A DNA stretch of 57,078 bases from Candidatus Berkelbacteria bacterium (GTDB lineage: Bacteria > Patescibacteriota > UBA1384 > JACPKC01): positions 1 through 57,078 of the forward strand of contig JAGQLE010000020.1 of NCBI GenBank assembly GCA_020429585.1, in the 5' to 3' direction. The position numbers and the translations under genes are program-made. Shown here piece after piece: positions 4,166-46,809 of the stretch. Below the pieces are notes generated by a model. It was not told the DNA's origin, ran no database searches, and was given only the letters and a program-made list of their open reading frames with translations. Within the stretch, counting starts at the first letter, position 1. Each line of letters opens with the position of its first letter.

Positions 4166-5028
4166 TCTCTAATATCCCTGGCTAGAACTAAAGCTCCATG
4201 CAAACCGCCAATCGAGCCCAGTTGAGCAGTAACTAGCTTGGGCAAACTTGGAAAGGTCTTCATGAGAGTCTTAAGCTCTAGCTCAACTTTTTCAATCGCA
4301 ATTCCCGGTTTTTTAGTCATCATTGCTCCACCTAAAACTAGAATCGAGGGCGACCAGTGGAGAATTGTATTGTGAAGACCGACCGCTAGGTAATGAGCTA
4401 AATCATCCCAAACTCGATCGTCTTTAATTTCCCACGGCTCTTGCTCGTAACGAGCTTTAACCGCAGTACCAGAAGCAAATTTCTCTAACTCGCCGTGGGG
4501 GTTATCGGCCAGGGCGGTCCCATCTAAATCTATAATCTGATGCCCGGGTTCAAAACCACTAATGCTGACATCAATCGCGCCATTGACGATCCTGGCACCG
4601 CCGATGCCGGTACTAACCGTAATGTAGGCAACAATCTCATGACCATGGCCGGCCCCGACTGCCGCTTCACCCAAGCCAACCACCGCACTGTCGTTTTCGA
4701 GTTTGACCGGAACGTCAAAAGCCTCCGCCAGCCTGGTCTTGATCGGCATATGGTCCCAACCGGGCAAGTTAGGTGGATTTATCAATATCGATTTTTCGCG
4801 ATTAAGCGGACCGGCAATACCACCGGCCAAACCTCGTAAAGGCCGGCCTTTAATTAAATCCCGACCGATTTCGCTAATTGCCTTTAAGCCATGATTGAAA
4901 TCAGCGGGCGTATCAATAATCACCGGCGCGCCAAATTTCTCGCCATCAGACGAGTAGGCTAATCTCGTCCTCGTTCCACCAATATCAAATAATAGATACA
5001 TAATTATAACTACACTGGTCCTATGCAC
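4162..5028 (-). CDS. ROK-family sugar kinase (glucokinase-like)
   Basis: LFDIGGTRTRLA N-terminal ATP-binding motif and ITVSTGIGGARI. The true start is probably MYLLFDIGG at 5001. Confidence 0.75.
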   Translation of the reverse strand: MHRTSVVIIMYLLFDIGGTRTRLAYSSDGEKFGAPVIIDTPADFNHGLKAISEIGRDLIKGRPLRGLAGGIAGPLNREKSILINPPNLPGWDHMPIKTRLAEAFDVPVKLENDSAVVGLGEAAVGAGHGHEIVAYITVSTGIGGARIVNGAIDVSISGFEPGHQIIDLDGTALADNPHGELEKFASGTAVKARYEQEPWEIKDDRVWDDLAHYLAVGLHNTILHWSPSILVLGGAMMTKKPGIAIEKVELELKTLMKTFPSLPKLVTAQLGSIGGLHGALVLARDIRD

Positions 5029-42534: not shown

Positions 42535-43968
42535 CTAAAGAATTGTCGGCTCAATTCTAGGTACTGCCTCACTCCCCTGCTCTGTATCACGCACCTCAAA
42601 GCCCATCGCTTCGATCGAATTCCTAATCTCATCAGCCCTGGTAAAGTCTTTAGCCTCTCGCGCTTGCTGGCGCGCAAGTAGTAGATCAGTCACTTCCTGA
42701 GGAATGTCTATTCCCCGCCCCAGTTCTTTAGCTAAATCGAGTCCAAAAACCTGATCCCAGTTCTTAATAATTTGGCTTTTAATTTGCGGGTCTAAATCCG
42801 AACGAAGCTTCTCCCAAAAAAGCGATAAGCCCTGAGCTAACCCTAAATCATCATTGATTCTGATCCTAAAATCTTGCTCTAGCTCTTCGGGAATTTCCCG
42901 CCCCTCCTTTGGGAGCGTTCGAACTAGCTGAATAAGCTTCTTTAAAGCAATATCAGCCGCATTTAAGCCTTCCCAGGTAAAATTGAGTGGCTTGCGAAAA
43001 CTGGTCATTAGGCACATTAACCTAAAACTCAAGGGCGAGTGGCCGCGGTCTACCAAATCCTGAACAGTATAAACATTTCCTAAGGATTTACTCATTTTAG
43101 CGCCGTCGACATTCATAAAAGCCGCATGTAGCCAATAGCTGGCTAAAGGCTTTCCGGTTGCCGCCTCGGTTTGGGCAACTTCGTTGGGATGATGAGTTTG
43201 CGCTAAATCAGCTCCACCAGTATGAATATCGAATGGTTGACCTAAGTATTTAGCACTCATCGCGCTACACTCAATATGCCAACCAGGAAAACCCTTTCCC
43301 CACGGACTGTCCCATTCCATCTGGCGACGCGATCGTTCGTCATCCTGAGCGGAGTCGAAGGATCTCCCACCAGGATAGGAGTACTTCCAAAGGGCAAAAT
43401 CTTCCGGTTGCCGCTTCTCTGGATTTACTTCTACTCGCGCGCCTGCGTCTTTTTCTTCGAGCTTCTGACCGGTGAATTCATGGTATTTAGGAAACTTAGC
43501 CGTATCAAAATAGATTCCATCCGAGGTCTTATAAGTAAAACCCTTGACCTCCAACTCCTTTACTAAAGCAATCTGTTCCTCGATATGATCGGTCGCCTTA
43601 GGCAGTTTATAGGGTTCTTCGATATTTAAACGCCCAAGATCGGCAACAAACTCTTGAGTATGCTTGGCCGCGATTTGCCAAGCGCTCAACTTTTGCGCAG
43701 TGGCGGCTTTAGCTAACTTATCCTCGCCGTCATCAGTATCCCCCTCAAGGTGGCCTACGTCGGTAATATTCATCACGAATTTAACCGAATAACCATTGTA
43801 TTCAAAAATTCGACGCAGCAAATCCGCCATTAAATAAGTTCGAAAATTACCCAGATGGGCGGTTGAATAAACCGTCGGCCCACAGTTATAAATACCAACC
43901 TCGTTCGGTCTGATTGGCTTAAAAACCTCTAGGTGTCGATGGACAGTGTCAAAAATCTTTATTTCGAT
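42535..43968 (-). CDS. cysS: cysteinyl-tRNA synthetase; apparent non-canonical start (ATC at 43968, or ATA or ATT just downstream)
   Basis: The track ORF starts at 43830, after the essential [15 protein letters not shown] (HIGH) region. The frame is open back to a TAA at 43978..43980 and has no ATG, GTG or TTG in between. KMSKSLGN is present. AAGGAA lies 5 nt before the ATC. Confidence 0.85.
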
Positions 43969-43977
43969 ACAAGTTCC

Positions 43978-44139
43978 TTAATTATATTCTTCGAACTCAC
44001 CTGAGTAACTGTAATTCGATGGAATTCGACCCAAAACTGGATCATCCTTGACCTCAAGTGACTCGGCCTTATAGCCGCAGAGCGAACATCGCCGCTCATC
44101 GGTTTCGTGATTACATTCGACGCAATAATACGTCGCCAT
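43978..44139 (-). CDS. small zinc-ribbon protein (53 aa), not in the ORF track
   Basis: MATYYCVECNHETDERRCSLCGYK... has two CxxC pairs. Strong GGGAGGGGAG RBS. It is in the same frame as cysS, and its TAA stop overlaps the cysS RBS. Confidence 0.5.
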   Translation of the reverse strand: MATYYCVECNHETDERRCSLCGYKAESLEVKDDPVLGRIPSNYSYSGEFEEYN

Positions 44140-44227
44140 CTCCCCTCCCTATTTACCTAAACTAAGTTTAAAAAACAACTTTAGCGTGATGCTAAATTGT
44201 TTAGTCCGTTTTGACTAGTGTGGATAT

Positions 44228-44836
44228 CTAAACCAGACTTTGCCTGCCCTCGATTGCCCTGGTTAAGGTAACAGCGTCGGCATATTCCAAGTCGCCGCCA
44301 ACCGGCAAACCATGAGCAATTCGAGAAACTTTAACCTTGATATTTTGCTCATCAAACTGCTGGCTCAAATACAGAGCAGTTGCCTCCCCTTCCATCGTAG
44401 GATTAGTCGCAATAATTACTTCAGTTATAGCAGGACTGTTTTTAAGACGAGTAAATAACGGCTTAATGTTTAAGTTGTCTGGACCAATCCCATCAATTGG
44501 CGAAATTGAACCACCCAAAATATGATAACGGCCATTATACTCAGTCCTTTCTAAGGCAACAGCATCAAGCGGCTGCTCAACCACGCAAATAATATGATTA
44601 TCCCTGCCTTGATCATCACATACCACGCAAGGGTCACTATCGGCGATGTTGCAGCAATTAGCACAAAAAATCAACGATCCGTGCAGACTCGTTAGTGCTT
44701 CCCCTAGCTGCTGACTGGTTGACTGATGCTGGCGAATCAAATGAAAAACTAAGCGGCTCGCGGATTTAGGTCCAATTCCTGGCAATTTAGAGAACTCTTC
44801 AATCGCCTTTTCAACCGACTTCGGCAACAGCTTCAT
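44228..44836 (-). CDS. recR: recombination protein RecR
   Basis: LPGIGPKSASRL HhH motif, a C4 zinc finger and a Toprim domain. Confidence 0.9.
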   Translation of the reverse strand: MKLLPKSVEKAIEEFSKLPGIGPKSASRLVFHLIRQHQSTSQQLGEALTSLHGSLIFCANCCNIADSDPCVVCDDQGRDNHIICVVEQPLDAVALERTEYNGRYHILGGSISPIDGIGPDNLNIKPLFTRLKNSPAITEVIIATNPTMEGEATALYLSQQFDEQNIKVKVSRIAHGLPVGGDLEYADAVTLTRAIEGRQSLV

Positions 44837-46809
44837 TTATCTTCCTGTTTTTCCTTCTTTTTGGTCGGATCGTCCCAAGTTGCGTGTTTGCATTTAGGAT
44901 AACGCTCGCAACCCCAAAAAGTTTTACCCCGGCGTGTTTTACGCTCGATCAACTGTCCTTCGCCGCACTCCGGACAAGTAATACCGGTTTTCTTAATAAT
45001 TGGTTCGGTATGTTTACAATCAGGAAAACCCGTGCAAGCCAAAAACTTACCATAACGGCCTGGCCTAATTACCATTGGCTTGCCGCACTCCGGACAAACT
45101 TTGTCTGTTTTCTCGGTTAGGTCAAGCTTTGGCACCTCGTCAGTCTTTTTTTCTACTAACTTATGAAATGGCTTGTAAAAATCTCCGAGCAATTTAGTCC
45201 AGTCCTCTTTTCCTTCGGCCACTTTATCCAGACCTTCTTCCATCTCAGCCGTAAAATCCAAGTCGACAATTTCCGGAAAATGTTTAACCAAAATGCCATT
45301 AACGTTCTGACCAGTTTCAGTGGGATGAAAACGTCGCTCAATTAACTCCACATAACCGCGATCTTGGATTGTCGACAGGGTTGGTGCATAGGTACTTGGA
45401 CGGCCAATTCCATGCTCCTCAAGCGCCTTTACTAAGCTAGCCTCGGAATATCTTGGAGGCGGCTCGGTAAAGTGCTGCTCGCCGACTAAATCATCCAAGT
45501 TAACCTGCTCGCCTTGTTTAAGAGCAGGCAAAATCTTGTCTTCGCGAGCAGTCGGCCAAACTTTTAAAAAGCCTTCAAAATCTACAACGTTACCCGTCGC
45601 CTTAAATACGCCCTCTCCTTTAGCGCTTTTAACTAAGACTGTCTCAGCCTTAAGGCGCGCCGGACTCATCTGAGAAGCCACCATCCTCTGCCAAATAAGC
45701 CGATATAACTTGGTATGCTTTTCCGACTTTAAGTTTAGTTTCTCTGGCAGAGATTCCACATGGGTCGGCCTAATCGCCTCATGGGCCTCCTGAGCACCTT
45801 TACTCTTAGTTTTGTAGTAGTTGGGCTTGTCCGGCAAGTAACCCTGACCATACTCCTTTTCCACTAGGCTACGAGCCGCCTTAAGTGCCTCGTCGGCCAA
45901 GTTGACTGAATCTGTTCTCATATAGGTAATGTGGCCGTCTTCGTATAAATCTTGTGCCAACTTCATTGTTTGTTTAGCCGAAAAGTGGAGTCGGTGCGCT
46001 GCCTGCTGTTGCAAAGTTGAGGTTGTAAAAGGCGGCGAGGGTCGTTTTTGCCGCTCCTTTTTTTCGATTGAATCTACTCTATACTCCAAATCCTTAAGAC
46101 TGGTTTCGATTTTTTTAGCTTCGGTTTCAGTTTTTACTGTCATCTTCTCAATCTTCTGTCCCTTAAACTCAACCAAGCTGGCCAAAAAATCATCCGAGCC
46201 TCTAAGGAACTTACCATCAAGCGACCAATATTCCTCGGGCTTAAAGGCCTTTATTTCGTTTTCCCGGTCAACAATAAGTCGAACTGCCACTGACTGAACC
46301 CGACCAGCCGACAATCCTTTCATAACCTTCTTCCACAAAAACGGACTAAGTGTATAACCAACAAGTCGGTCTAAAATCCGACGAGCCTGCTGCGCATTAA
46401 TTAAATCGTAGTCGAGGTCACGCGGCTTCTTAACCGCTTCCTCAAGCGCTTTCTTTGTGATTTCGTGAAAGGTAATCCGACGCACTGACTTACCCTTAGC
46501 TAATTTTAAGGACTCTAAAACATGCCAGGCAATTGCCTCCCCCTCGCGATCGTAGTCAGTTGCCAGAAAGATGTCGTCAGCGGCAGCAGCGGCTTTTTTA
46601 AGGGCGGAAACTGTTTTTTTAGCCTTAGCAGGCACTAAATAATCCGGTGTAAAACTTCCATCATCGGTTTCTACACCCATCTTACTCTTCGGTAAATCAC
46701 GAACGTGACCATAGGAAGCTAAGACCTGATAGTCCTTACCCAAATAACGTTCAATTGTCTTACCCTTGGCGGGCGACTCAACAATAACTAAATGCTTTTT
46801 TGCCATCAA
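44833..46809 (-). CDS. topA: DNA topoisomerase I (type IA) with C-terminal zinc ribbons
   Basis: LVIVESPAKGKTI, ITYMRTDS and two CPECG...C..C ribbons. Confidence 0.9.
   Translation of the reverse strand: MMAKKHLVIVESPAKGKTIERYLGKDYQVLASYGHVRDLPKSKMGVETDDGSFTPDYLVPAKAKKTVSALKKAAAAADDIFLATDYDREGEAIAWHVLESLKLAKGKSVRRITFHEITKKALEEAVKKPRDLDYDLINAQQARRILDRLVGYTLSPFLWKKVMKGLSAGRVQSVAVRLIVDRENEIKAFKPEEYWSLDGKFLRGSDDFLASLVEFKGQKIEKMTVKTETEAKKIETSLKDLEYRVDSIEKKERQKRPSPPFTTSTLQQQAAHRLHFSAKQTMKLAQDLYEDGHITYMRTDSVNLADEALKAARSLVEKEYGQGYLPDKPNYYKTKSKGAQEAHEAIRPTHVESLPEKLNLKSEKHTKLYRLIWQRMVASQMSPARLKAETVLVKSAKGEGVFKATGNVVDFEGFLKVWPTAREDKILPALKQGEQVNLDDLVGEQHFTEPPPRYSEASLVKALEEHGIGRPSTYAPTLSTIQDRGYVELIERRFHPTETGQNVNGILVKHFPEIVDLDFTAEMEEGLDKVAEGKEDWTKLLGDFYKPFHKLVEKKTDEVPKLDLTEKTDKVCPECGKPMVIRPGRYGKFLACTGFPDCKHTEPIIKKTGITCPECGEGQLIERKTRRGKTFWGCERYPKCKHATWDDPTKKKEKQEDK

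Follow-up and report, generated by a model that had tools for sequence, protein, structure and literature searches.

The DNA analysed here (the window) is a stretch of 57,078 nt, contig JAGQLE010000020.1 of assembly GCA_020429585.1, from a Candidatus Berkelbacteria bacterium of the Patescibacteriota. Its minus strand carries cysS, the gene for cysteinyl-tRNA synthetase (CysRS), preceded by a small zinc-ribbon open reading frame (ORF), here called ZnR, and by recR. Counted from the start codon proposed below, an AUC, cysS spans positions 42535..43968 (minus strand) and comprises 477 codons plus a TAG stop at 42535. ZnR (43978..44139, minus strand) encodes 53 amino acids with a CxxC...CxxC pattern and an acidic C-terminal tail, and belongs to an unnamed Berkelbacteria family. 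The strong Shine-Dalgarno (SD) sequence GGGAGGGGAG (44140..44149, minus strand) stands directly 5' of its ATG (44139-44137). recR (44228..44836, minus strand) is the upstream member of a conserved recR-ZnR-cysS block.

The junction between ZnR and cysS reads GAA TAT AAT TAA GGA ACT TGT ATC GAA ATA AAG ATT TTT GAC ACT GTC CAT on the minus strand. The TAA (43978-43980, minus strand) is the stop codon of ZnR and lies in the cysS frame. Between this TAA and the HIGH motif of CysRS (HLGN, 43846..43857, minus strand, within CGPTVY...HLGN), the sequence contains no ATG, GTG or TTG. The first canonical ATG of the frame (43828..43830, minus strand) is codon 47 counted from the ATC and follows the HIGH motif; it is a false start that gene callers choose, and the list of ORFs likewise opens the frame at the ATG at 43830, which yields 431 aa. 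ZnR is contained in this list as well. A sequence-only reading of the locus had claimed that cysS has no canonical start before the HIGH motif, and that upstream of it, separated by a single TAA, the same frame holds a 53-codon CxxC...CxxC ORF preceded by a strong ribosome-binding site. Sequence and translation bear out both claims.

The cysS gene is intact. The catalytic domain of CysRS (Pfam PF01406, tRNA-synt_1e) matched with 323 bits (cut-off 27, E=2.6e-96), the CysS_C domain was matched as well, and both the HIGH (HLGN) and the KMSKS motif of a class I cysteinyl-tRNA synthetase are intact. The catalytic domain opens at residue 19 of the stop-to-stop frame, which is 28 codons ahead of the first ATG. 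The host genome (790 kb in 55 contigs, 99% complete) contains only one locus with scores at the level of CysRS, and cysS is thus a single-copy gene. The sequence-only reading had named a second intact cysS elsewhere as the finding that would turn this copy into a decaying pseudogene; none exists in the 55-contig assembly. The ORF is of full length, and neither a broken frame nor lost motifs nor relaxed selection was seen. All three stop codons terminate long ORFs in this genome, so that its genetic code is standard; TAA is the commonest among them. At the codon frequencies of the genome, the chance that 49 codons contain no ATG, GTG or TTG is about 0.12, so that the absence alone is not improbable.

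The junction offers three near-cognate codons of the type AUH (ATH in DNA; ATA, ATC or ATT). The ATC at 43966..43968 (minus strand) is located 6 nt 3' of AAGGA, which is part of an SD-like UAAGGA (43975..43980, minus strand) whose UAA doubles as the stop codon of ZnR. The ATA at 43960..43962 (minus strand) lies 12 nt 3' of the SD sequence and is the alternative candidate. The ATT at 43954..43956 (minus strand) is an unlikely start. The frame thus combines the lack of a canonical start from the upstream in-frame stop to the conserved N-terminus with an in-frame AUH codon near the start position of the orthologues, at a working distance behind an SD sequence that is moderate in this case. The same lack of a canonical start was found at the loci L007, L010, L012, L024, L084 and L085, which are described below.

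L084 and L085 are Logan contigs from two different runs (DRR333436 and DRR333437), which were found by means of a 90%-identical copy of ZnR. As their CysRS is 78% identical to that of the window, they were taken to represent a sister species. On these contigs the sequence of the junction is TAC ATG TAA GGA ACA AGT ATC GAA ATT AAG CTT TTT GAT. The TAA, UAAGGAAC, the SD-like TAAGGAAC and the ATC are kept in both contigs, such that the same TAA is present in three independent assemblies; the ATA of the window is replaced by ATT, and the ATT by CTT. Among the first 46 cysS codons counted from the ATC, window and sister species differ by 16 synonymous and five non-synonymous codons. The preponderance of synonymous differences indicates that the stretch upstream of the first ATG is translated; purifying selection acts on the cysS codons 5' of this ATG. 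In both Logan contigs the public gene call opens at the equivalent internal ATG and gives a product of 420 aa that has lost the HIGH motif.

The cysS loci of nine genomes of the same family, which represent six genera besides that of the window, and of about 30 other genomes of the class were compared. In the genomes outside the family, the start codon of cysS is ATG, GTG or TTG. Within the family, an ATG is present only in genus g2 (four genomes), and L007, L010, L012 and L024, which belong to four different genera, have no canonical start near the N-terminus of CysRS. In one further genus the locus is cut at a contig end. A canonical start of cysS is therefore missing in five of six family genera, the genus of the window included. 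L007, L010, L012 and L024 contain an SD-like GAGGA(G) followed by an in-frame ATA 5-6 nt further on. In L010 and L012, whose upstream in-frame stops lie at a distance of only 10 and 5 codons, respectively, this ATA is the sole near-cognate codon before the conserved N-terminus. In the alignment, the ATC of the window shares its position with the ATA behind the SD sequence in L012 and L024, and the ATG of g2 follows two codons further 3'. The non-canonical codon is thus conserved, as ATC in the sister species and as AUH in five of the six genera. Judging from these alignments, what goes beyond chance is that the start codon is absent right at a conserved N-terminus, and that this absence recurs in related genomes together with an SD sequence and an AUH codon. 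The comparison of orthologous loci, which the sequence-only reading had proposed as a check, accordingly yielded two separate genes throughout the class and four other genera that also lack a canonical start and contain an ATA behind an SD sequence.

In g2, the nearest SD-like motif is found about 9-19 nt from the ATG, and the upstream stop codon is 3-9 nt from it. We infer that a strong codon and a well-placed SD sequence may be traded off against each other. In a CysRS tree, g2 is the sister of the window lineage (support 90/92) and nested in a family whose other branches use ATA. From this nested position it follows that the AUH state is old, and the ATG of g2 was probably regained.

Taken together, the comparisons argue that cysS is a functional, separately translated gene whose translation initiates at a near-cognate AUH codon; we assign this reading a probability of roughly 0.8. 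If it holds, the ATC at 43968-43966 is most likely the codon used, a choice that we infer from its position and conservation. Several observations weigh against this reading. The UAAGGA preceding the ATC is weaker than the SD sequences of other AUH genes and missed the threshold of -7 kcal/mol applied for listing. In the sister species, ATT stands in place of the ATA at 43962, so that an AUH codon is retained there and this position might be the start. The gap of 9 nt between the ZnR stop and the ATC is at the edge of the working range of termination-reinitiation (PMC10666635). The family loci are related, so that their agreement does not amount to five independent events. Finally, the support for AUH initiation at cysS is of a comparative nature.

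Further candidates for AUH starts were sought in the same genome. To this end, 613 putative genes were screened for coding-like sequence 5' of the first canonical start and for SD sequences, rated by duplex energy, before in-frame ATH codons. An SD sequence of <= -10 kcal/mol precedes 2.6% of the ATH codons in such pre-start segments and 0.7% of the ATH codons in gene interiors. A stricter screen, which demanded GGAGG and a codon 5-7 nt further on, gave only 48 sites and was too narrow to quantify AUH usage; the duplex-energy screen was more useful. The candidates are an ATC at C7:3118 (plus strand) in the gene of a Big_5/Peptidase_C39-like protein, which was confirmed by comparison with orthologues, an ATA at C30:133 (plus strand), an ATT at C17:1655 (minus strand), an ATA at C50:13198 (minus strand), an ATC at C55:5341 (plus strand), and ATT codons at C6:10683, C2:12355 and C43:10231 (all minus strand). 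The ATT at C19:6938 (minus strand) is doubtful, as 16 codons further on there is an ATG that has the look of a typical start (MKKTFK). In total, about ten genes or roughly 1.5% are candidates for an AUH start, the essential cysS included; for four of them, not counting cysS and infC, orthologues were compared. The sequence-only reading had called the situation at cysS unusual for an essential synthetase; this holds in general, whereas in this genome cysS is one of about ten such candidates.

Comparison with orthologues confirmed four candidates: the PilB-like protein, the Na/Ca exchanger, the C7 protein and CdaA. In all four, the AUH codon coincides exactly with an ATG or GTG of the orthologues that follows the same SD sequence. 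The ATT of the PilB-like gene occupies the same place as the ATG or GTG of six family orthologues, behind the same GGAGGG. The ATA of the Na/Ca exchanger aligns with the GTG of an orthologue, the ATC at C7:3118 with the ATG of three orthologues, and the ATA of cdaA with the GTG of an orthologue. Pfam coverage agrees with the AUH start in CdaA and YraN; in the remaining candidates it speaks neither for nor against it. For the DUF389 gene, the Pfam domain begins exactly at the first ATG, and its AUH start is only a candidate. Leaving the C19 candidate aside, gene callers would shorten the other AUH-start genes by 12-185 codons. In infC (G000:C24:4278-4823, plus strand), an ATA at about position 4332 is located 5 nt 3' of GGAGG, which is the classic arrangement of the IF3 gene. 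This ATA is most likely the start codon, which suggests that the discrimination of AUH codons by IF3 operates in this organism. A different non-canonical codon occurs at the CdaA orthologue L095 (G004:C7) of another genus: its SD-led start position is a CTG (GGGGAGGGG TT CTG), and an ATG that lacks an SD sequence stands seven codons upstream. This orthologue may start at the CTG.

The reading had listed termination-reinitiation on ATC, ATA or ATT among its explanations. The non-AUG start stands, given an SD sequence and an AUH codon in five genera and in the sister species; a strict dependence on reinitiation would be a further assumption, and several other AUH genes of this genome have no close upstream ORF. 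In its obligatory form, this explanation holds that cysS is translated only by ribosomes that have just left ZnR and restart on the nearest AUH codon. The distance between ZnR and cysS is always very short in the family, ranging from a gap of 9 nt to an overlap of 10 nt, overlaps are frequent in other families, and coupling needs such short distances (PMC10666635). The distant SD-like motif and the close stop codon of g2, moreover, suggest that coupling is the older mode. However, all AUH lineages possess a well-placed SD sequence 5-6 nt upstream, and no upstream ORF ends near the AUH codons of the PilB-like, DUF389, YraN and C2:12355 genes. The existence of these genes suggests that SD-directed AUH initiation works uncoupled here, and obligatory reinitiation is possible but unlikely. 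Somewhat less probable again is a start of cysS at the ATA (43962-43960), which would give a protein beginning with MKIFDT. Four related genera use ATA, and the codon is still AUH in the sister species. Moreover, CysRS proteins commonly begin with MKIF or MKLY, which such a product would resemble. The ATA is, however, 12 nt away from the SD sequence compared to 6 nt for the ATC, and it is the ATC that is strictly conserved and aligned with the ATA of L012 and L024.

Two further explanations assume that the TAA is not an ordinary end of a separate gene. Programmed read-through or recoding of the TAA would produce a ZnR-CysRS fusion as the functional enzyme, and the two ORFs do share a reading frame, interrupted by one TAA, in the window, in the sister species and in L006, L009 and L011. 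In L007, L008, L010, L012, L024 and many other families, however, ZnR is shifted to the +1 or +2 frame relative to cysS or overlaps it. Because the frame varies among the genera in this way, the in-frame TAA is incidental, and read-through, as put forward by the sequence-only reading, is most improbable. Neither a suppressor tRNA in the genome nor an Rfam element at 43700-44400 was found, the fold of the junction RNA did not exceed that of shuffled sequences (z = -1.4), and TAA is the commonest stop codon of long ORFs. The same Rfam scan and fold give no support for a riboswitch, a T-box, an attenuator, or a pairing of the Cys-codon region with the SD sequence of cysS. An assembly or sequencing error, or a decaying pseudogene, is even harder to believe. 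The truncation of cysS in public gene calls and the missing tRNA-Cys of the 55-contig assembly would fit such an explanation, but the junction is the same in three assemblies, the changes in the first 46 codons are mostly synonymous, the full-length ORF with all its motifs has no second copy to replace it, and the absence of several further tRNAs fits gaps in the assembly. The proposed nonsense mutation or sequencing error in a formerly fused gene fails on the TAA shared by the three assemblies and on the separate genes of the class. A recent split of a fused ZnR-cysS gene was likewise ruled out by the varying frame and by the separation of the two genes across the class.

ZnR is a real protein-coding gene. 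Across the family (alignment A1), the residues C6, C9, C18, C21, E8, E12, G22, E26, L28, V30, D32-D33-P34 and G37 are invariant, and relatives keep the equivalent SD sequence AGGAGGGG ahead of it. Profile searches found ZnR in nine of ten family genomes and weaker copies in other families, nearly all of them directly 5' of cysS; a motif scan added an ORF with a zinc ribbon and an acidic tail 5' of cysS in 13 of 21 further loci. In 41 of 46 loci, recR is encoded on the cysS strand, 167-690 nt upstream of cysS. The distance from the ZnR stop to the cysS start is +9 nt in the window, and the overlaps within the family measure 2 or 10 nt; with the same strand and an overlap or short gap, ZnR and cysS have the layout of a coupled gene pair. 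Among 5.8 billion protein clusters, 53 relatives of ZnR were detected. None of these carries a Pfam domain, and those that are named are all termed hypothetical protein and come from Berkelbacteria or Patescibacteria. Comparison of ZnR with Pfam, NCBIfam and PDB sequences gave only generic zinc-ribbon matches below the cut-offs. The weak profile matches are Nop10, Spt4/RpoE'' and RCKP-type zinc-ribbon or rubredoxin-like proteins, which share with ZnR two CxxC knuckles about 8-12 residues apart. In contrast to these, the motif E-x-L-x-V-(K/R)-DDP, the acidic tail and the fixed position in recR-ZnR-cysS are specific to the ZnR family.

In the ZnR proteins of the window, L006-L012 and L044-L057, the acidic tail ends in a hydrophobic tip (EEYN, EEEL, EDDLYL, EEEF), which resembles the C-terminal tip of SSB. 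With recR immediately 5', a role of ZnR in recombination is as conceivable as one that involves CysRS. In ZnR of L009 (G001:C1, about 81459-81617), a locus of the ATG genus, a TAA replaces the codon of the conserved Glu in EPLEVKDDP, such that only the Cys knuckles are left; either the protein is truly truncated there or the assembly is wrong. Since tight coupling is enriched among the subunits of complexes (PMC10666635), CysRS and RecR are plausible as partners of ZnR, although this is conjecture.

From these observations, the following course of cysS expression can be proposed for initiation at the AUC. As neither a terminator nor a promoter on the coding minus strand was predicted in 43700-44900, where the sole promoter-like match is on the plus strand, topA, recR, ZnR and cysS would be co-transcribed. 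ZnR would be translated efficiently from its GGGAGGGGAG-AUG, and ribosomes would stop at its UAA, 9 nt 5' of the cysS start. The AUC would be selected with the help of the UAAGGA 6 nt upstream and read by the normal initiator tRNA. Ribosomes that finish ZnR would raise the local ribosome supply and keep the start site unfolded; this coupling would partly offset the weak codon and probably contributes to the translation of cysS. As in the case of infC, one would expect that little CysRS is made and that its output responds to IF3. A more far-reaching proposal is tentative and seems doubtful at present: in the Berkelbacteria of this family, the stringency of start-codon selection might be relaxed genome-wide, perhaps in connection with an atypical initiator tRNA, and ZnR, which keeps its place between recR and cysS across the class and would be coupled to cysS, might at the same time serve CysRS specifically as a partner or regulator. 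ZnR may, for instance, form a complex with CysRS, or may constitute a cysteine- or zinc-dependent gate on CysRS synthesis via its Cys codons.

Some features of the tRNA complement were recorded as well. In the presumed initiator tRNA(CAU) at G000:C35:1735-1808 (plus strand), U1 pairs with A72 where the C1xA72 mismatch would be expected, and U31-G39 takes the place of the third G-C pair in the anticodon stem. The T-loop reads UGCAAAU, and GG is absent from the D-loop. This atypical tRNA could bear on start-codon stringency. A tRNA-Ile(UAU) is encoded at G000:C1:8389-8463 (plus strand), and there are only two CAU tRNAs, for which reason AUA is presumably read without a lysidine tRNA-Ile2. Neither ARAGORN nor Rfam detected a credible tRNA-Cys(GCA) in the 55-contig assembly. 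Because tRNA-Asn was found in the assembly only with a predicted intron of 511 nt (C48:1093-1678), and tRNAs for Leu(UAA/CAA) and Pro(UGG) are also missing, the lack of tRNA-Cys was treated as an assembly gap. A second tRNA-like gene with a low score (29 bits) and the anticodon CCA is located at G000:C40:1142-1211 (plus strand).

An AUH start of cysS would be an instance of a rare but known mechanism, namely that of infC, pcnB and the dnaA gene of Deinococcus. In E. coli, the start codon of infC and pcnB is AUU. In many bacteria infC starts with ATT or ATA, and autoregulation that depends on IF3 is a known rationale for it. We know of no such rationale for cysS. In E. coli, AUA, AUC and AUU initiate at 1-2% of the level of AUG, and infC and pcnB are the only confirmed AUH users (10.1101/063800). 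Like these two, cysS is an intact housekeeping gene with an AUH start behind an SD sequence that is kept across related species; unlike them, it encodes an aminoacyl-tRNA synthetase, and its start codon lies 9 nt past the stop of an upstream ORF. N-terminal proteomics showed that dnaA of Deinococcus starts at ATC, and rpsL (CTG) and infC (ATA) are also non-canonical there (PMC2830850). The two cases have in common essential genes with non-canonical starts that are conserved in the lineage, misplaced by annotation and present several times per genome. The starts of Deinococcus, however, are proven by proteomics compared to comparative evidence for cysS, and the lineage (Patescibacteria/Berkelbacteria) and the set of genes are different. 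Termination-reinitiation is confined to overlapping genes and very short gaps (PMC10666635), and the 9 nt between ZnR and cysS are still inside this range. Typical coupled pairs resemble ZnR and cysS in the shared strand, the overlap or gap of <=10 nt, the SD sequence of the downstream gene inside the end of the upstream gene, and the occurrence as a pair throughout the class (PMC10666635, PMC12548453). In contrast, the restart codon of classic pairs is AUG or GUG, and their overlap is usually 4 nt or 1 nt. For ZnR-cysS the restart codon would be AUH, and the two genes overlap by 10 nt or 2 nt or are +3 to +9 nt apart. A literature search on non-canonical starts in the candidate phyla radiation (CPR)/Patescibacteria or in cysS yielded nothing relevant.

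The case is of interest for an essential synthetase with an AUH state that extends across genera, for the unusually large number of AUH starts in one genome, and for an unnamed small protein that occurs throughout the class and is probably coupled to cysS. Standard gene callers, which consider only ATG, GTG and TTG, remove 46 codons including the HIGH motif from the sole CysRS, as illustrated by the call of 420 aa in the sister species compared to about 466-477 aa. In the same way they cut membrane anchors and N-terminal domains off other genes of this genome, and such truncation errors pass into metabolic reconstructions and protein-family alignments of CPR bacteria. That an essential synthetase has retained a weak start while the genera diverged points to an expression that is deliberately low or tuned by IF3. 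Furthermore, the class-wide recR-ZnR-cysS block draws attention to an uncharacterised small protein with CysRS or RecR as possible binding partners.

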